Of a stretch of 48,572 bases of DNA, positions 5,750 through 20,743 are shown one piece after another. The stretch's first letter is position 1; every line of letters begins with the position of its first letter. The position numbers and the translations under genes were made by a program. A model generated the notes under the pieces. The model worked only from the letters and a program-made list of their open reading frames with translations, did no database searches and had not been told where the DNA came from. Origin of the DNA: an uncultured Planctomycetia bacterium. GTDB lineage: Bacteria; Omnitrophota; Gorgyraeia; Gorgyraeales; Gorgyraeaceae. The stretch is from the NCBI GenBank assembly GCA_964415355.1, contig CAYPYS010000001.1, forward strand, positions 95,161 through 143,732, written 5' to 3'.

Positions 5750-6115
5750 CTACAAGCTCTTCATTGAAACAAGTATGCCCTTGTGGTATAACTCCAATCG
5801 ATAATCTTTTATGTATCCGTACCTGTCTCTATAAACCCTCGGTACGTTTATCTGTGTCTTGTGCCAACCTCTCTTGATATTGTTGAGGCCTGAACTTGAA
5901 AATGAAAGTTCCGCGCCCTTGCTAAAAGAACAAAAAAGCTTAAATACAAGACCATCCGTCCATTCGTCTTTCGTTTTATAATTTATCTTAAAAATATACC
6001 CTTTGGAACTGCGGATCTTTGAGAGGGTTTCAATGACAGACGTAGCTGCATGAGTCGAGCACGCTAAAGAGAGAAAAATAATTATTGTTATTAAACAACA
6101 AAATGCCCTACGCAT
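5750..6115 (-). CDS. Small secreted protein of unknown family (paralog A)
   Basis: 121 aa with signal peptide MRRAFCCLITIIIFLSLACSTHA. Shares INY.T.D.WTD, SS.LNN..GWHKTQI and LY..G.L blocks with the ORF at 6172-6561. Has its own near-consensus promoter. Confidence 0.7.
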   Translation of the reverse strand: MRRAFCCLITIIIFLSLACSTHAATSVIETLSKIRSSKGYIFKINYKTKDEWTDGLVFKLFCSFSKGAELSFSSSGLNNIKRGWHKTQINVPRVYRDRYGYIKDYRLELYHKGILVSMKSL

Positions 6116-6127
6116 ATATACATTTGA

Positions 6128-6156
6128 ATTATACTGTCAGGCTAGATAATAGTCAA
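6128..6156 (-). promoter_or_regulatory. sigma70-type promoter of paralog A
   Basis: TTGACT-N17-TATAAT on the minus strand. The -10 ends 12 nt before the ATG at 6115 and no SD is present. Confidence 0.7.
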
Positions 6157-6171
6157 GATTTTTTGGAAGGC

Positions 6172-6561
6172 TTAATAATTTTTCTTGCTGTCAATAAGCA
6201 CGCCGTTTTTATAGAGGTCGATCTTGTATTCACGCAAGGAACCGTATCTTTTTTTCATGGTGTCTGAGATCGCTATCTGCGTCTTGTGCCAACCCTTCTC
6301 AACGTTATTAAGGGAACTGCTGGCAAATGTAAACTCTCCTCTGTCAAACTTACAATGGACCTTAAAAAGAAGATTATCAGTCCATTTATCGCGCGTCTGA
6401 TAGTTTATAAGAATAACGTACCCGCCCATTCTATGGATCTTCATGGCGCCTTTTATGGCCACTGAATCTGCAAATGAATTTTGTAGGGGGAATGACAGGA
6501 CAGAGATCAGCGTTGCAAAAATTATTAAAAATTTCGCGATTTTCACTCGTGGCAAGCACAT
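6172..6561 (-). CDS. Small secreted protein of unknown family (paralog B)
   Basis: The track ORF starts at 6597. I prefer the ATG at 6561 (MCLPRVKIAKFLIIFATLISVLS...) because AGGAAGGA lies 7 nt upstream, whereas the 6597 ATG abuts a U7 tract. Roughly half the residues are identical to paralog A, by eye. Confidence 0.65.
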   Translation of the reverse strand: MCLPRVKIAKFLIIFATLISVLSFPLQNSFADSVAIKGAMKIHRMGGYVILINYQTRDKWTDNLLFKVHCKFDRGEFTFASSSLNNVEKGWHKTQIAISDTMKKRYGSLREYKIDLYKNGVLIDSKKNY

Positions 6562-6604
6562 ACTTTCATCCTTCCTAATATGCCCTAAAATGAGCATAAA
6601 AAAA

Positions 6605-6718
6605 TCGAAGGAATGGGTACGCGGTCTTTCGGCAACCCAGCCGCCTTACCCTAACTGGCTTAGGCCTGTGGCTTTGCGTCCCAATCTTTCGATCAGTTTG
6701 CCTTTTCGGTTTTACCCG
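6605..6718 (-). promoter_or_regulatory. c-di-GMP-I (GEMM-I) riboswitch upstream of secreted-protein paralog B
   Basis: Minus-strand RNA: GGGUAAAACCGAAAAGGCAAACUGAUCGAAAGAUUGGGACGCAAAGCCACAGGCCUAAGCCAGUUAGGGUAAGGCGGCUGGGUUGCCGAAAGACCGCGUACCC. It contains the GEMM-I hallmarks as I remember them from the V. cholerae Vc2 aptamer: GGCAAAC, a GAAA-capped hairpin, GGGACGCAAAGCC, the CCUAAG...UAAGG tetraloop-receptor halves, and GGGUUGCC closing P1. A U7 tract (6598-6604) and an anti-SD-like UCCUUC follow. Confidence 0.85.
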
Positions 6719-6736
6719 AAAATTAATAAAGACTTT

Positions 6737-7531
6737 TTAGAGGAACTCGATCTGGGAAGGATCATTAAGGATTATCTCGCAATCGCCTTTATATTCTTTG
6801 ATTACGCCATAGACCCTTATTGTCTTATGCTTGAAATAGGTATCCGGAGAGCGCGAAGCCATTTTGGGGAAATACCCTAGATTATTTTTGAATATAACGA
6901 CCTTAAAATTGCCCAGGCAGTTCAATGTCAAGACGCGATCTGATAAATAAGTGCTTAGCACCCTGGCCTCCACCATTCTAATCATGCCTACATTATCCTG
7001 GGCCTCATAGGGCGATATAATTTTTTCTTCCATTTCGCCCCATAGCCCCCTGTTGTCTTCCCTGGCCTCTTTTTGGGCAACCAAAAAATCATCCACATGT
7101 TTCACGTTCGGAGGATAAGTATATATCATCGCATAACCCTGCCTGACCATTTCCATATTAGCCATAACATCATCCTGATACACATACGCGAGGATACGGC
7201 CATATTTATCTCTCTTTTGGACATCGAATTTCAACCTGATATCCTTCCCTTCCACAAGCTTGCGATTAAAATCCTTTGCCTCCTCTGCATAGGGCATCGG
7301 GTCGTAAATCCATCCAGCGCCTTTTCTCTTTCGCAGCTCAGGCGTATCTATTCCTATATAACGCACCTTCTCGCCGCTGGAAAGCTCTAAAGTATCGCCG
7401 TCGACTACATGCGACACGTAAACGTCTTTATTATAATCTGCGAAATGAAGCGGCAAGCGCTGCAAAAGCCTTACTATTGCAAAGCCGGCAACAAGAAAAA
7501 CTATTATTATCAGAATGCATTTTTTCTTCAT
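6737..7531 (-). CDS. Thermonuclease (SNase) family nuclease with N-terminal signal/anchor and an extra C-terminal domain
   Basis: HVVDGDTLELSSGEKVRYIGIDTPE, KDIRLKFD...RDKYGRILAYVY and GLWG motifs of staphylococcal-nuclease-like proteins. Hydrophobic N-terminus. Confidence 0.8.
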   Translation of the reverse strand: MKKKCILIIIVFLVAGFAIVRLLQRLPLHFADYNKDVYVSHVVDGDTLELSSGEKVRYIGIDTPELRKRKGAGWIYDPMPYAEEAKDFNRKLVEGKDIRLKFDVQKRDKYGRILAYVYQDDVMANMEMVRQGYAMIYTYPPNVKHVDDFLVAQKEAREDNRGLWGEMEEKIISPYEAQDNVGMIRMVEARVLSTYLSDRVLTLNCLGNFKVVIFKNNLGYFPKMASRSPDTYFKHKTIRVYGVIKEYKGDCEIILNDPSQIEFL

Positions 7532-7598: not shown

Positions 7599-7635
7599 TA
7601 AGTTTACACTTTAACATTGTTGAAATGTATACTTA
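7599..7635 (-). repeat. Palindromic intergenic repeat R5 (B, variant)
   Basis: TAAGTTTACACTTTAACATTGTTGAAATGTATACTTA. Exact reverse complement of R18. Contains the stop of the PilZ gene. Confidence 0.95.
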
Positions 7636-9642
7636 GTCGATAGGGAACATCAATGGATTGTAATTATGCATGGCGAAAATCGTGTATGCAGTGCCGGCGG
7701 CTGACCCTGTCCTCGAGCCCTTTGCTATCCTCCAGCCGTGACCAGTATCGACATTGTCCTGCGAGGCATAAGGAAGGCACCCCTCGCCCTGACCTACCCG
7801 AGAAGGACTGACGATCATCATTTTCTGAAGTTCGGAAAGATAAAAATCCGCCTTTATCTTATAATAATCTGCTTTTATGGTGTCTCCTATCGACTCGCTG
7901 TACCCTGCCATCATATTCAACGACACCACCATCTGCGCTGTCCACTCTGTTGAAACAACCCCGCCTCTTGCCAAGTTCGTATTTTTTCCAAAATCAAAAC
8001 CTGTTATCTTCAGATGCTCGCCGTCAGGCCTTTTATAAGTAACATTGACATGACAATTCTCCTCTGCGAAATCCATAATCTGTCCCGGATCCATGCCTGA
8101 CTCTTTGAGGGTCTTCGGCCCGATAGCCGCAATGGCCCACGCGAACGTATCTGTCGCAATAGTGGCATCGCCCTTCCCCCTATTAAGCCTATTTTCTTTA
8201 TTATTATAGGCGTGATCCTTGATCCATTTCAATGTCCTGCCCTGAGCTGACCTGTATTTATTGTCTTTTGTCACTTCGTACAGCATCCCAAAAAATGCAT
8301 AGGCATCCAGATTATGTTCGGTGCTGAACCATGAAAACTTTGGCCCGCCTCTTATCCCAAACTGCGCATCTTCTTCCTGCAATAAAATCAGCCAGTCAGC
8401 TATGTCTTTTGCGACCGAAAGATATTGCTCATCCTTAAACTTATCAGTGTATTGCAAGACAGCCAGGCCGATCCAAATATTGGGCCCGCTGTGAACAGCA
8501 TATTCCACAACCTTCCCGGTATACGCGTCATAACCATTGACATAGCCGCCTTTTACCTTTTCAGCCTTGTCCTTATAAAAATCCAATATCTTTTGCGCGT
8601 TCTCCTGGTCACCCATCAAGGTGAAACACTGGGCTGCCAGAGACTGGTCATAAGTAAACGCCCAATCCTCGATATCCTTATCGCCCTCGAAACTCACCAC
8701 CAGCCCTGTCAAAAAATTCTGGTGATTCTTGATCCATCTATACATGCTCAATACGCCTCTTTCCTCTATTTCTGTAAAAGAAGGCAGAAACTCTTTTAAG
8801 GCGTCCTTCGCTGAAATCCTTTTCTGCGAAAGCCTGGTTACTTTATCTTTCAAATCAGATGTCTCGTTCGACAAGATATTTACCTTTTTCAGAAGCCTTG
8901 CTTTTTCAAGAAGCGCTTCCTTGAGTCTTTTCTTAGTAACCCCTCTATCCTGTTCGAAGTATTCGAGTATCTTATCTTTTCTCTTGAGTTCAGCACTTAG
9001 CGCCTTCAGTTCATTGACTTTTCCCCAGTATTCCTTGATCATCTTCTCGTTCTCTAAAATCTCTTCTTCCAGGGCCTCACGCTCGCTGCCGGACTCGATA
9101 ATACTATGTTCGAGCTCAGACTTCTTCTGAGAGAGCTCCACGAGCTCACGGACCAGCCGGACATTTTCCCTTCTCAGTTTAAAATCAGAGCTATAAAAAA
9201 AGGCAAGGCCTGTTATTAGGAATAAAACCAGGATCGAAACGATCTTCGGGGTCAAAGATATCCTTCGAGCGTGAAAATAGATCTTTTTCCTGGCCCTTGG
9301 GTCTATCTCTAAAAATGAAAGGCCGATGAGATATTTATTAGGATAGCTTCCTTTTATTTTTTTATACCAGGCAATGCCGGCTATAGCCTTTGTTCCTCTA
9401 TGGCTTAGCGGGATATTAAGATTCAGTTCTAGTTTAGCCTTTTGTTCGGCTACGATGTCTTCAAATTTCTCTTCCAGATTATTGACCTCTAAGCAGATAC
9501 CGCCCTTGCCCACGTCCCTCGTAAAACCCTGCTTGACCTCGCCAATTACTTCTCCTGTTGCCTGGTCTAAAAATTGAAATTCGACAGGGAACACAGCATG
9601 CAGCCTGATATATTTTCTCTGTTCAATATTTTTATTTTTCAT
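7633..9642 (-). CDS. PilZ domain - TM helix - coiled coil - (alpha/alpha)6-like C-terminal domain protein
   Basis: N-terminal RxxxR (QRKYIR) and D.G..G (RDVGKGGI) PilZ motifs. TM segment SILVLFLITGLAFFY. Long heptad-like E/K-rich segment. The C-terminal 350 aa have the look of a six-hairpin glycosidase-like fold. Stop codon lies in repeat R5. Confidence 0.7.
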   Translation of the reverse strand: MKNKNIEQRKYIRLHAVFPVEFQFLDQATGEVIGEVKQGFTRDVGKGGICLEVNNLEEKFEDIVAEQKAKLELNLNIPLSHRGTKAIAGIAWYKKIKGSYPNKYLIGLSFLEIDPRARKKIYFHARRISLTPKIVSILVLFLITGLAFFYSSDFKLRRENVRLVRELVELSQKKSELEHSIIESGSEREALEEEILENEKMIKEYWGKVNELKALSAELKRKDKILEYFEQDRGVTKKRLKEALLEKARLLKKVNILSNETSDLKDKVTRLSQKRISAKDALKEFLPSFTEIEERGVLSMYRWIKNHQNFLTGLVVSFEGDKDIEDWAFTYDQSLAAQCFTLMGDQENAQKILDFYKDKAEKVKGGYVNGYDAYTGKVVEYAVHSGPNIWIGLAVLQYTDKFKDEQYLSVAKDIADWLILLQEEDAQFGIRGGPKFSWFSTEHNLDAYAFFGMLYEVTKDNKYRSAQGRTLKWIKDHAYNNKENRLNRGKGDATIATDTFAWAIAAIGPKTLKESGMDPGQIMDFAEENCHVNVTYKRPDGEHLKITGFDFGKNTNLARGGVVSTEWTAQMVVSLNMMAGYSESIGDTIKADYYKIKADFYLSELQKMMIVSPSRVGQGEGCLPYASQDNVDTGHGWRIAKGSRTGSAAGTAYTIFAMHNYNPLMFPID

Positions 9643-9766: not shown

Positions 9767-10177
9767 ATGAGGGCTGATTGCAAGAAAAATTCTGGTTTTA
9801 CACTGCTCGAGCTTATGATAGGCGTATGCATATTGATCGTGGGATTAGTGGCACTCATATCTGCCTATATCGGATGTTTTGCATTGAATGAAAGCGCGAG
9901 AAACCTTACTATTGCAACAAACCATGCCCAATGCGTAATGGAAGAGATCCGGGACTACAATATCCCATCCAATATCACGCAGGAAGACTGGACAGCTTGG
10001 GCGGCAGCAGATCTTCCGACTGGCGGCGGTTGCAATACCCTCGATACTGAATCGATTAATGTAACATATCCTTCGGGCACAGGCACGAACCCTTTAGAAA
10101 TCCTGGTTACAGTCAACTGGTCTGAAAAAAATAGATCGCGCAGCGTCCAGTTCTCTACGCTGCTGACAGAGCGATAA
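9767..10177 (+). CDS. Prepilin-type N-terminal cleavage/methylation domain protein (pseudopilin)
   Basis: KKNSG/FTLLELMIGVCILIVGL gives the canonical G-1, F+1, E+5 prepilin peptidase site. Confidence 0.8.
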   Translation: MRADCKKNSGFTLLELMIGVCILIVGLVALISAYIGCFALNESARNLTIATNHAQCVMEEIRDYNIPSNITQEDWTAWAAADLPTGGGCNTLDTESINVTYPSGTGTNPLEILVTVNWSEKNRSRSVQFSTLLTER

Positions 10178-10180
10178 GAG

Positions 10181-10627
10181 ATGAAAACCATTAAAGCCAT
10201 TACCTTAATCGAATTAATGATCGCGCTGGCCATATTCTCGATAATCCTCGGAGCTATCTATAGCGTATTGAATATGGGTCGGGCATCTTATTATACTGGC
10301 GATATCCAGATAGCAGTACAGCAAGAAGCGCGCAAGGCAATGGATAAGATGACCCGGGAAATACGGGAAGCCAGCTCTGTCAATCTCAGCGATGATTATC
10401 CTTTTGCAGTCGAGGCAAACCGCATAAAATACGAAGTCAATAGCGGACAGCTACAGAGAATTGTTCAGGGAGGATCGACCACTGTCTTGGCAAACGATGT
10501 TGGAAATGTTCAGTTTACTCTGATAGGCGGAGATATGGTGTATATAACATTAACAACGCAAAAAAATACTGTGCTCGGAAGAAGCTTGAGCGCTGATTTG
10601 ACCTCTCAAGTCAACCTGAGAAATTAA
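10181..10627 (+). CDS. Minor pseudopilin (PilW/GspJ-like)
   Basis: N-terminal AITLIELMIALAIFSII prepilin-like segment with E+5. Only a 3-nt gap to the upstream gene. Confidence 0.7.
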   Translation: MKTIKAITLIELMIALAIFSIILGAIYSVLNMGRASYYTGDIQIAVQQEARKAMDKMTREIREASSVNLSDDYPFAVEANRIKYEVNSGQLQRIVQGGSTTVLANDVGNVQFTLIGGDMVYITLTTQKNTVLGRSLSADLTSQVNLRN

Positions 10628-10631
10628 AACC

Positions 10632-11924
10632 ATGTTAAAGAACAAAAAAGGCATAGCCCTGATAACTGCATATATAGTCATCGCTGTCCTGACAGCGCTT
10701 GGAGCCGCGTTTATCTCCCGCAGCATAAGCGAGATGAGGGTTGCTGAACGGGCAAAAAATTCTACCCAGGCCTTCTATATTGCAGAGGCCGGCATAGACT
10801 ATGCTATTGAAGAAATGCGCAATGGCAATACGTCAGATCAGAATACTGCCACATTGAACGACAGCAACGCCACTCCCATAGGTTATTATAATGTAAACTG
10901 GCAAAGGATAGGGTCGTCTTCCACGTGGGAAATTATATCTGACGGCTTTGTAGGCGATACCCAAAGAAAGGTCACCGTGGAAGCGCTGCCAGATACATTT
11001 GCCAGATATCTGTATTTTACAGACGACGAACACTTCCGCTGGTGGTGGTGGAGAGTACCGGTATGGTTCGTAACAGGCGATAATCTGGGCGGCCCACTGC
11101 AGACAAATTCGCATTTTCATATATCTGGAGACCCTGCTTTCAGCGACCCTGACTATCATAGACCTGTTAAAAGCGTAGATGACTTCATTACATATATGAA
11201 TGGCGGATCGCCCATAAATAGCACAGCCACTTCTAATTCACCAAACGACAATCCTACATTCGAAGAGGGCCTTCAATTAGACTCAGACAGGGCCCCTTTT
11301 CCAAGCAGGGCACTCGACTTAGAAAACGCTGCTTCTCAACCAGAAGGACTTGCTCTGACTGGAGCAACGACAATAGTCCTAAACTCTGACGGAACAATGA
11401 ATGTTACTAACAACGACCGAGGGTGGTCGAATGAAAACATGTCATTGCCAGACAATGGCGCAATGTTTGTAGATAATGGCGATGTAACTATCTCAGGCAC
11501 TCTGAACGGCCAGCTCAGCATAGGGACAAGCGAAAATATAGTCGTATCTGACAATGTGACTTATAACACAGATCCTAGAGTCAATCCGACCTCCACGGAT
11601 ACCTTAGGCCTCATAGCTGAAAGAGATGTAGTGATAAGCCAGAGCGCCCCTCACGATATAGAGATCGATGCCAGCGTAATGGCGCTGGGCGAATCATTTA
11701 CAGTTGAAAACTATTGGCAGGGCCCGCCGAAAGGCACTATCAGCGTATATGGCGGGATCATTCAAGACGAACGCGGTCCCGTAGGTACCTTTAACCCCAG
11801 CACTAACAGCAAAGCCAGCGGCTACAGCAAAGATTATCAATACGATCCAAGATTGATGGCAAGTCCGCCTCCATTCTATCCTACTACAGGGGATTATGTT
11901 ATCAGCTCTTGGTCAGAGGAATAA
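10632..11924 (+). CDS. PilX-N-domain-like minor pilin/pilus tip protein
   Basis: N-terminal KKGIALITAYIVIAVLTALGAAFISRS...AFYIAEAGIDYAIEEM resembles the PilX N-terminal domain and lacks E+5. Large Asn/Ser/Thr-rich globular part. Confidence 0.55.
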   Translation: MLKNKKGIALITAYIVIAVLTALGAAFISRSISEMRVAERAKNSTQAFYIAEAGIDYAIEEMRNGNTSDQNTATLNDSNATPIGYYNVNWQRIGSSSTWEIISDGFVGDTQRKVTVEALPDTFARYLYFTDDEHFRWWWWRVPVWFVTGDNLGGPLQTNSHFHISGDPAFSDPDYHRPVKSVDDFITYMNGGSPINSTATSNSPNDNPTFEEGLQLDSDRAPFPSRALDLENAASQPEGLALTGATTIVLNSDGTMNVTNNDRGWSNENMSLPDNGAMFVDNGDVTISGTLNGQLSIGTSENIVVSDNVTYNTDPRVNPTSTDTLGLIAERDVVISQSAPHDIEIDASVMALGESFTVENYWQGPPKGTISVYGGIIQDERGPVGTFNPSTNSKASGYSKDYQYDPRLMASPPPFYPTTGDYVISSWSEE

Positions 11925-17654: not shown

Positions 17655-18062
17655 CTAAGTCAGATTTTCAGAGATTGTATTCAGGATGTTTTCTTCTACG
17701 AAGATGGGCGCCTTTGCGCGGACAGCCAGGGCGATGCTATCGCTGGGCCTTGCATCTATTTCTTCCAACTTGCTATCTATCTGCAGAACGAGCTTTGCAA
17801 AAAACGTATTCTGTTCTAATTTTGTAATAACTATTCTGTCTATTTTTGCTCCTAGCTGATTCACGGTAGAGCAAAACAAATCGTGCGTCATAGGCCTGGG
17901 CGGGGTCAAGCCGCTGACCTTCATCTTTATGGCGGTGACCTCCATTATGCCTATTACAATAGGCAGAATGCGCTTCCCGGCCTTTTCCTTGAGAAGGATT
18001 ACCTGCTCTCCCCTGTTCTCATCAATCCGGATTTTGTTTAATTCCATCTCTACAATAGCCAT
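17655..18062 (-). CDS. Bifunctional nuclease family protein (BFN/DUF151)
   Basis: LPIVIG..E..AI...PRPMTHDL...ARPSD.IALA pattern typical of DUF151. Confidence 0.8.
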   Translation of the reverse strand: MAIVEMELNKIRIDENRGEQVILLKEKAGKRILPIVIGIMEVTAIKMKVSGLTPPRPMTHDLFCSTVNQLGAKIDRIVITKLEQNTFFAKLVLQIDSKLEEIDARPSDSIALAVRAKAPIFVEENILNTISENLT

Positions 18063-19969: not shown

Positions 19970-20743
19970 TTATTGCCTGCCTATTATCCACCTCAATATA
20001 TCCTGACCCCAGATCATTGCAACGAAGCTGGCCATTGCAATATAGGGCCCATAAGGAATAATATCCTGTTTTTTCCTGAATTTCAAATAAATCCCAGCAG
20101 GGGAGCCGAAAAAAGGAGCGAGGAAGAAAATAAGCACTGCCATCTTCCAACCCAAAAAAGAGCCCAGCATGGCCATGAGTTTCACGTCTCCTCCGCCCAT
20201 GCTTTCCTTTTTAAACGCCATGCTTCCCAAAAATCCAGTCAGACACATCAGCGCCGCCCCTACAAGCGCTCCTAATAATGAATTTATAATTGACTCTTTC
20301 CATGTAAGTACAGAATGAAGTGACGGCACCAAAGCGCTGATAAGGATTCCAGAAAATAAACCGCCGAGGCTGAATCTGTCAGGTATAATTTGAAATTCGA
20401 GGTCGATAAAAGTTATTGCTGTTAAAATAGACGCCAGCAAGCTGTATATATAAAATCTGGCTGAAAATCCAAAATTCACAAACAGGACCAAAAAAGCCAG
20501 CGCGCTTATGAGTTCGACGATAAAATAACGCGGGGAAATCTTTTTTTTACAGGATCTACATTTGCCTCCAAGCAGCAAATAGCTCAAAAAAGGTATATTA
20601 TCGTACCACGCTATTGTCTTTTTGCAATGCACGCATCTCGAACGGGAAAAACCAATGGATTCACTGCGCGGTATCCTGTATATGCATACGTTCAAGAAAC
20701 TCCCTATCACTGCTCCGAAGATAAATATAAATAAATTCACCAT
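19970..20743 (-). CDS. pilD: Prepilin peptidase (A24 family)
   Basis: N-terminal zinc-binding CxxC...CxxC region, polytopic membrane domain, GGGDVKL active-site motif. Confidence 0.85.
   Translation of the reverse strand: MVNLFIFIFGAVIGSFLNVCIYRIPRSESIGFSRSRCVHCKKTIAWYDNIPFLSYLLLGGKCRSCKKKISPRYFIVELISALAFLVLFVNFGFSARFYIYSLLASILTAITFIDLEFQIIPDRFSLGGLFSGILISALVPSLHSVLTWKESIINSLLGALVGAALMCLTGFLGSMAFKKESMGGGDVKLMAMLGSFLGWKMAVLIFFLAPFFGSPAGIYLKFRKKQDIIPYGPYIAMASFVAMIWGQDILRWIIGRQ

Follow-up and report, generated by a model that had tools for sequence, protein, structure and literature searches.

A c-di-GMP-I riboswitch aptamer and its putative translational expression platform ahead of a small exported protein gene in Omnitrophota

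The leader described here lies on the minus strand of a stretch of 48,572 nucleotides (nt; hereafter the window) from an uncultured bacterium of the phylum Candidatus Omnitrophota (contig CAYPYS010000001.1, positions 95,161 to 143,732). It occupies the spacer between the gene of a secreted nuclease, SNase (stop codon 6739..6737), and a gene which we call paralog B (6172..6561) and which encodes 129 amino acids (aa) with a signal peptide and an immunoglobulin (Ig)-like beta-sandwich. An initial annotation of the window had placed in this spacer an aptamer of the cyclic di-GMP (c-di-GMP) class I, or GEMM-I, upstream of a small exported protein for which no family could be named. Both parts of that proposal are borne out: the aptamer (6628..6712) scores 81.6 bits against its Rfam family, whose gathering score is 35, and the same aptamer was found ahead of the same gene in 20 unique leaders from Omnitrophota metagenome-assembled genomes (MAGs) and metagenomes. 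The gene order PilZ-like protein (about 670 aa), SNase, leader, paralog B, paralog A and PFK recurs, whole or partial, at loci where neighbouring genes were called. Between the aptamer and the start codon lies a short conserved strand that can pair either with the aptamer or with the Shine-Dalgarno (SD) region, and we lean, by a modest preponderance, towards a three-strand switch in which c-di-GMP turns translation of paralog B off.

The c-di-GMP-I riboswitch class has been known since 2008, and the window copy joins this established class; the aptamer class itself is not new. A search with RF01051 (c-di-GMP-I/GEMM-I), the check that the initial annotation had proposed, returned a match at 6712..6628 (-) over the full model (1-87) with an E-value of 1.3e-14, and this was the sole Rfam match at gathering level within the window. 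Every motif from which the aptamer had been recognised could be read on the minus strand: GGCAAAC at 6702..6696, the GAAA tetraloop at 6690..6687, GGGACGCAAAGCC at 6682..6670, the receptor halves CCUAAG at 6664..6659 and UAAGG at 6648..6644 (in most orthologs the latter is the classical UAUGG) and GGGUUGCC at 6638..6631. In the Rfam consensus structure they form two adjacent hairpins, one GNRA-capped and one with the receptor, as is characteristic of the c-di-GMP-I class. The tetraloop hairpin CUGAUC-GAAA-GAUUGG (6681..6696) is called P2 here and corresponds to P1b in the nomenclature of Vc2, the c-di-GMP-I riboswitch of the Vibrio cholerae tfoY leader; the receptor hairpin (6634..6673), P3 here, is P2 in Vc2. 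Alignment to the model equates the ligand contacts G20, A47 and C92 with g6702, a6675 and c6632, C44 with c6678 and its bridge partner G83 with g6641 or g6642, while the junction pairs of G21-C22 with G45-C46 fall on 6701-6700 with 6677-6676. In the Vc2 structure G20 and C92 lie in the ligand pocket, C44 and G83 form a bridge, the tetraloop contacts its receptor and the junction bases form the pairs G21-C46 and C22-G45 (PMC11705072). We conclude that 6712..6628 (-) is a genuine, canonical c-di-GMP-I riboswitch aptamer, and the leader should therefore bind c-di-GMP.

Two of the pairings originally proposed for the aptamer need revision. GGGUUGCC had been described as pairing back to GGCAA, and this helix does appear in the thermodynamic fold; it is missing from the Rfam consensus and from the Vc2 structure (PMC11705072), and in both of these the bases concerned build the ligand pocket (G20, C92) and the G21-C46/C22-G45 pairs. 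The outer helix GGGUA/UACCC, which was thought to close the domain, is not upheld. It reaches -6.5 kcal/mol or lower in only about 10 of 21 leaders, is not conserved, and comes to -3.8 and -3.6 kcal/mol in the closest relatives of the window (L001 and L002). Pairing in the outer helix also has to compete with UUUUCGG-GUAAAA-CCGAAAA (6703..6722), a local 5' hairpin which overlaps the 5' flank of the aptamer, contains the GGGUA and forms in every fold of the window leader. This hairpin is present in 13 of 21 leaders with -7 to -9.6 kcal/mol and with changes from CGG/CCG to GGG/CCC. Its 3' arm CCGAAAA is nearly a duplicate of CCGAAAG in the 3' tail of the aptamer (6632..6626), so the UUUUCGG arm could pair with either. 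In the consensus register the closing helix P1 is limited to about 2 bp (c6708-g6707 with c6631-g6630).

For comparison we fetched 73 related loci and recovered their leaders by Rfam, regular expressions and an nhmmer profile; 19 aptamers entered the covariation alignment. The columns of G20, A47 and C92 are invariant in all 19 aligned leaders. Two-sided compensatory changes occur at six alignment pairs, all of them in P3, and all six pairs of P2 are kept in 19/19 leaders with one-sided changes only (U-G/U-A and A-U/G-U variation). Paralog B has 93 homologs; all those with an organism name come from Candidatus Omnitrophota and all the named ones are annotated as 'hypothetical', while some MAG records holding related loci carry the label Planctomycetia. 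In the searchable literature we found no description of a c-di-GMP riboswitch in Omnitrophota. For two of the leaders, L001 (2853-2936) and L003 (544-651), competition within clan CL00126 assigns the variant family RF03167 (c-di-GMP-I-GGC) with 70 and 62.8 bits. We reject this label as an artefact of the clan competition: the consensus of the variant, taken from the cmscan alignment, has a G at the A47 position (GACGCGAAg), and L001 and L003 have an A there (GACGCAAAG), as does the window, so all copies are canonical at the specificity positions. Automated annotation would mislabel these two canonical aptamers as RF03167.

Downstream of the aptamer, a 20-nt block, GCGUACCCAUUCCUUCGAUU (6622..6603 (-)), is nearly invariant across leaders, and the rest of the linker varies freely. 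The reverse complement of this block approximates the aptamer's own tetraloop hairpin and junction (UGAUCGAAAGAUUGGGACGC, 6695..6676), that is, the 3' side of P2, its loop, most of its 5' side and the junction GAC-GC. Conservation and folding thus make the block a switching strand which serves as the 3' arm of one helix, H_A, formed with this part of the aptamer, and as the 5' arm of another, H_B, formed with the translation start. As a duplex H_A has -23.2 kcal/mol in the window, and 19 of 20 leaders fall between -21 and -27.5 kcal/mol. At 14 of the 15 core positions, 18 or more of the 20 leaders have a canonical pair, and one U.U mismatch is universal. One position is G-C in 15 leaders, G.U in two and A-U in two (L036 and L042), which is a two-sided compensation, and in L039 both partners are altered together (AGGGCGC:GCGCCC). 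Formation of H_A destroys P2 and the junction pairs and is therefore incompatible with ligand binding. Leaving the block unpaired costs 1-16 kcal/mol, at least 8 kcal/mol in 15 of 17 leaders and 8.3 kcal/mol in the window. In transcripts that end at the U-run directly 3' of the block, where the SD is absent, H_A is favoured over the intact aptamer by 9-19 kcal/mol, an advantage comparable to the binding energy of a picomolar to nanomolar ligand.

The other helix, H_B, joins 6623..6607 to 6557..6574, an arm which takes in the SD GGAAGGA (6575..6569) and the start codon (6561..6559). The initial annotation had given the segment UUCCUUCG (6613..6606), which lies in the block, two partners. Its pairing with the SD was correctly seen; CGAAAGA at the 3' edge of the aptamer is not the main alternative, since that local hairpin is worth -1.9 kcal/mol and the main alternative partner is the tetraloop hairpin with the junction. 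The local hairpin formed by H_B has -22.5 kcal/mol in the window; for 19 of 20 leaders the values range from -14.6 to -27.8 kcal/mol, and the AUG usually lies within the hairpin. Its loop holds in the window a linker hairpin (AUGCUC-AUUUUA-GGGCAU, 6580..6597), found in minimum free energy (MFE) folds, whose sequence is not conserved in orthologs. Duplexes of the block with the translation initiation region (TIR) of its own leader have -12 to -22.6 kcal/mol, compared with -8 +/- 2.7 kcal/mol for 47 other TIRs of the window, and in 14 of 17 leaders no control TIR matches the pairing with the own TIR. The SD regions differ among leaders and each is still complementary to the block. Several of them mimic the aptamer strand, as in L072, which has UCGAAAGGAUGGG where the aptamer has UCGAAAGGUUGGG; the mimic in its SD region is UCGAAAGGAUGGGU.

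On the same strand, 66 nt separate the end of the aptamer from the ATG at 6561, and the two mutually exclusive folds are practically isoenergetic. When the block was constrained to pair either upstream only or downstream only, the MFE of the window leader was -58.6 and -58.5 kcal/mol, respectively, and the ensemble energies were -62.0 (H_A) and -61.9 (H_B) kcal/mol; in most leaders the two MFEs differ by no more than a few kcal/mol. The choice between them decides the state of the translation start. Over the 19 nt from the SD to the AUG the mean probability of being unpaired is 0.70 in the window with H_A and 0.29-0.36 with H_B or with the aptamer locked, and averaged over 20 leaders it is 0.50 with H_A against 0.21. 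In most orthologs, the window, L001 and L002 excepted, H_B ends in GGGU followed by UUUUUAUGUUUUU (GGGU-UUUUAUGUUUUU in L072). This end resembles a canonical intrinsic terminator found in the Omnitrophota MAG L015, and by this analogy the ligand-bound H_B hairpin may also terminate transcription in orthologs of the GGGU type. The L015 terminator, GCCCUUAU-GCUUCGGU-AUAAGGG followed by UUUUUUGUUUUU, belongs to a thiamine pyrophosphate (TPP) riboswitch (L015:845-995; RF00059, 59.6 bits) and lies just upstream of an open reading frame (ORF) with a GTG start.

The orthologous leaders have their own promoter. In all 19 examined, a TTG-type -35 element is followed after about 17 nt by a (T)GTATA(C/A)T -10 element, in most cases 35-45 nt upstream of the aptamer (range about 12-93 nt). 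For the window leader no promoter was found, the best match being 7/12 at an unrelated site. Comparison with L001 (2730-2830) and L002 (1000-1100) shows a clean deletion of about 95 nt from the SNase stop codon to AAAGTCTTTATT (window 6736..6740 (-)), which takes with it an inverted-repeat hairpin and the leader promoter TTGATT-17-TATAAT. With no promoter of its own, the leader in the window must rely for its transcription on read-through from the SNase gene.

These features suggest the following course of events. Without c-di-GMP the block would invade the aptamer immediately upon its own transcription, starting from the toehold ACGC:GCGU and proceeding through the stem of P2, so that SD and AUG would stay accessible and paralog B would be translated. 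Once c-di-GMP has bound, the pocket (G20, A47 and C92, with the pairs G21-C46 and C22-G45) and the docked tetraloop and receptor would keep P2 shut; the block would remain free until the SD region emerges and would then sequester SD and AUG, possibly with added termination at the H_B hairpin in most orthologs. We infer the direction of regulation, that is OFF, from this order of events, and a precedent for it is the stem-loop which takes up the ribosome-binding site (RBS) and AUG of the Bc1 riboswitch upon addition of c-di-GMP. The U7 tract (6598..6604), which follows H_A immediately and could in itself be a pause site or a terminator tail, would act in such a switch as a pause and probably not as an efficient terminator. 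This scheme would be in keeping with the U-rich pause site that has been proposed to follow the aptamer in the Cd1 riboswitch (PMC9262584).

The expression platform has good support, and its design is somewhat unusual. Vc2 shares with the window leader the docking of the GAAA hairpin, the G20/A47/C92 pocket and the C44-G83 bridge, and reporter assays, as they are cited in the Bc1 paper, concern a mutation that disrupts its translational regulation (PMC11218506). Vc2 has a closing helix P1a of several bp, however, while the window leader has the short P1 given above and its switching strand is directed at the tetraloop hairpin with the junction instead of P1; the organism and the regulated gene are also unrelated. 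In Cd1 of Clostridioides difficile, a transcriptional OFF switch, the bound aptamer likewise lets an OFF hairpin form and the ligand-free competing helix likewise uses a part of the aptamer (PMC9262584). There the competing helix is made by the aptamer-closing strand A with the 5' strand P and the output is termination, whereas in the window leader the aptamer partner is P2 with the junction and the OFF hairpin holds SD and AUG. Bc1 of Bacillus thuringiensis has at low c-di-GMP a terminator-like fold with RBS and AUG exposed, and at high c-di-GMP its terminator T1 unfolds while RBS and AUG enter a stem-loop (PMC11218506). This incoherent dual regulation has the same pair of signatures as the window leader, but the platform of Bc1 is long and contains two separate canonical terminators, of which T2 is insensitive to the ligand; the window leader uses one strand with two alternative partners, and the window holds no second independent terminator.

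Several observations weigh against a translational OFF switch. P1 is only about 2 bp long in the window, though the length of P1a influences ligand binding in Vc2 (PMC11705072), and the H_B duplex of the window, with -14.7 kcal/mol, is barely past the best control TIR with -14.3 kcal/mol (47 controls, mean -8.1). Predictions for several leaders favour H_B over H_A by 5-11 kcal/mol even in the absence of ligand, and the OFF model therefore needs kinetic trapping of H_A; nearest-neighbour energies, for their part, err by several kcal/mol. The 10-bp base of H_A with the U7 after it also resembles an intrinsic terminator; if it acts as one, transcription would be OFF without ligand. The terminator of the TPP riboswitch, a hairpin with a U-run, indicates that such terminators work in the phylum. 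That a transcriptional and a translational platform are both possible, as the initial annotation had it, is still a fair statement. A transcriptional ON switch, in which H_A and U7 terminate transcription without ligand, c-di-GMP protects P2 and allows read-through into paralog B, and pairing with the SD is too weak or transient, would explain why a run of five to eight U residues directly abuts H_A in 18 of 20 leaders and why H_A is so far ahead at the time the U-run is made. It is also in accordance with pilM, an ON-type relative within GEMM-I, which uses exclusive aptamer and terminator folds (PMC9262584). Such a switch would leave the conserved, register-compensated helix that sequesters SD and AUG unaccounted for, and the two leaders without a U-run, L012 and L024, retain both H_A and H_B. 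The only strong helix ending at U7 is the long-range H_A itself (-23 kcal/mol), whose A-U-rich base and arms more than 70 nt apart are unlike the GGG-based terminator of L015. No terminator-like site at 6604..6598 (-) appears in a consensus scan, and the window as a whole contains no excess of such sites (18, compared with 18.2 +/- 4.3 in shuffled sequences). On this evidence we regard transcriptional ON control as quite unlikely.

Both signatures occur together in 18 of 20 leaders, as they do in Bc1 (PMC11218506), and one could accordingly propose incoherent dual control, where low c-di-GMP mostly terminates transcription and leaves the SD open in the escaping transcripts, and high c-di-GMP permits read-through with SD and AUG sequestered. 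The dedicated, well-matched promoter upstream of most leaders argues instead for a switch with a clear output, and Bc1 itself shows no net response. Aptamers of the c-di-GMP-I class usually bind their ligand very tightly, as is the case for Vc2, and with such an affinity the ligand levels that prevent termination would saturate the full-length RNA and leave little steady-state expression. We consider incoherent control of this leader unlikely, and are equally doubtful that the same 20-nt strand would serve throughout Omnitrophota as a terminator with P2 in the absence of c-di-GMP and as sequestrator of SD and AUG in its presence. Were this so, the output would be buffered, or paralog B would be made only at intermediate or falling c-di-GMP. 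Together with Bc1 such leaders would then represent a recurrent and so far unrecognised GEMM-I design that computes more than ON or OFF, and they would connect the c-di-GMP lifestyle switch of these ultra-small bacteria with a lineage-specific, basic secreted Ig-like protein whose gene lies beside that of a secreted nuclease. It is extremely unlikely that the leader responds to a different ligand, either 3'3'-cGAMP, the ligand of GEMM-Ib, or whatever ligand the RF03167 'GGC' variant recognises. L001 and L003 do score best against RF03167, but they and the window have an A and not its defining G at the A47 position, and RF01051 is the best clan member for the window. cGAMP-specific GEMM-Ib riboswitches carry A20, as Kellenberger and Nelson and their colleagues reportedly described in 2015; position 20 (6702 in the window) is a G in 19/19 leaders. 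The pilM riboswitch of Geobacter, a GEMM-Ib which responds to c-GAMP, has a homologous aptamer fold and an aptamer exclusive with its terminator, like H_A and the aptamer here; it differs in its ligand and reportedly in its A20 specificity, and has no alternative that sequesters the SD. Finally, the leader could be a relic in this particular genome that regulates nothing useful after the deletion of its promoter, an element seen in all the orthologous leaders examined. Loss does occur in this family: L007 lacks the leader entirely, and its gene begins 1-4 nt past the SNase stop codon. However, the aptamer score of the window is among the highest of all copies, H_A, H_B and the balance between them are intact, and the SNase gene is only 18 nt upstream, from where read-through would still supply the leader in cis. 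We judge decay of the window leader to be very unlikely.

The riboswitch offers a sequence-level route into the c-di-GMP regulon of an uncultured phylum, and points to the narrow family of basic, secreted beta-sandwich proteins around paralog B as a putative target of c-di-GMP control. Linkage to the secreted nuclease and the PilZ-like protein makes members of the paralog B family candidates for surface, matrix or DNA-related functions. The design of the platform, with a strand that attacks the tetraloop hairpin instead of P1 and an SD that has evolved as a mimic of an aptamer strand, should be useful both for understanding translational riboswitches and for engineering them.

The protein itself was initially put at 13 kDa, which is approximate: the precursor has 14.9 kDa and a signal-peptide-like N-terminus, and the mature form after SFA|D has about 98 aa, 11.4 kDa and a pI of 9.7. 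In line with what had been stated, no Pfam or NCBIfam match was found. An AlphaFold2 model built from a 24-sequence alignment (mean predicted local distance difference test score, pLDDT, 88.7) has an N-terminal helix, seven beta-strands and one short helix. A Foldseek search of this model against the PDB returned only generic Ig-like sandwiches with template modelling (TM) scores of 0.35-0.54 (GH2 Ig-like, Asf1 and PDE6D/UNC119/NPC2), and a profile searched against 1.84 billion representative proteins yielded only 12 clusters, none tied to a known family. Paralog B is thus predicted to be a basic Ig-like beta-sandwich of a very narrow, lineage-specific family, and the sole hints at its function are its basic pI and the constant linkage of its gene to that of the secreted nuclease. 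An in-frame ATG at 6597, directly after U7, would open an ORF of 141 aa; we rejected it as the start since it is not conserved in orthologs. Gene callers have produced over-long homologs of 153-212 aa, and a spurious 72-aa ORF over the riboswitch in L061/L062 (2292-2510).

Paralog A (5750..6115 (-), 121 aa) is 44% identical to paralog B. Its promoter, TTGACT-17-TATAAT (6156..6128, 11/12), is kept in every syntenic locus, which places paralog A outside direct control by the riboswitch. The ATG lies 13-14 nt past the -10 element and has no SD, so to judge from its sequence the gene appears to be expressed on a nearly leaderless mRNA. Homologs without a riboswitch have other arrangements upstream. 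At seven loci (L004, L010, L011, L013, L019, L066 and L068) the homolog stands beside an OmpR-type response-regulator gene and is preceded, about 40-110 nt upstream, by three or four tandem direct repeats AAATTAACACT/TAAATTAACGT (TTAAC every ~11 nt). These replace the -35 element ahead of a TATACTT -10 element, and the arrangement looks like a promoter activated by a response regulator. In L016, L017 and L021-L023 a promoter of the type TTG...GGTATACT directly follows a histidine-kinase gene, with no aptamer, and L026-L029 have a promoter of the paralog A type, directly after SNase in L027-L029.

Two genes upstream of the riboswitch, a conserved PilZ-like protein of 669 aa is encoded at 7633..9642 (-). 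Its N-terminus, which is similar to the c-di-GMP-binding domain PilZ, carries the motifs RKYIR and DVGKGG and scores 16.9 bits with Pfam PilZ, for which the cut-off is 22.5; the PilZ of the L072 homolog is likewise 'faint'. The PilZ-like part is followed by a transmembrane/coiled-coil region and then by a large C-terminal domain without a family. Among the 23 window ORFs scanned against Pfam and NCBIfam there were no GGDEF or EAL genes. A divergent operon of minor pilins and pseudopilins (PilV, ComGE/ComGF and GspK-like; 9767..11924 (+)) starts beside the PilZ-like gene, a prepilin peptidase (A24) is encoded 10 kb away at 19970..20743 (-), and a second nuclease-domain gene (BFN_dom) lies at 17655..18062 (-).

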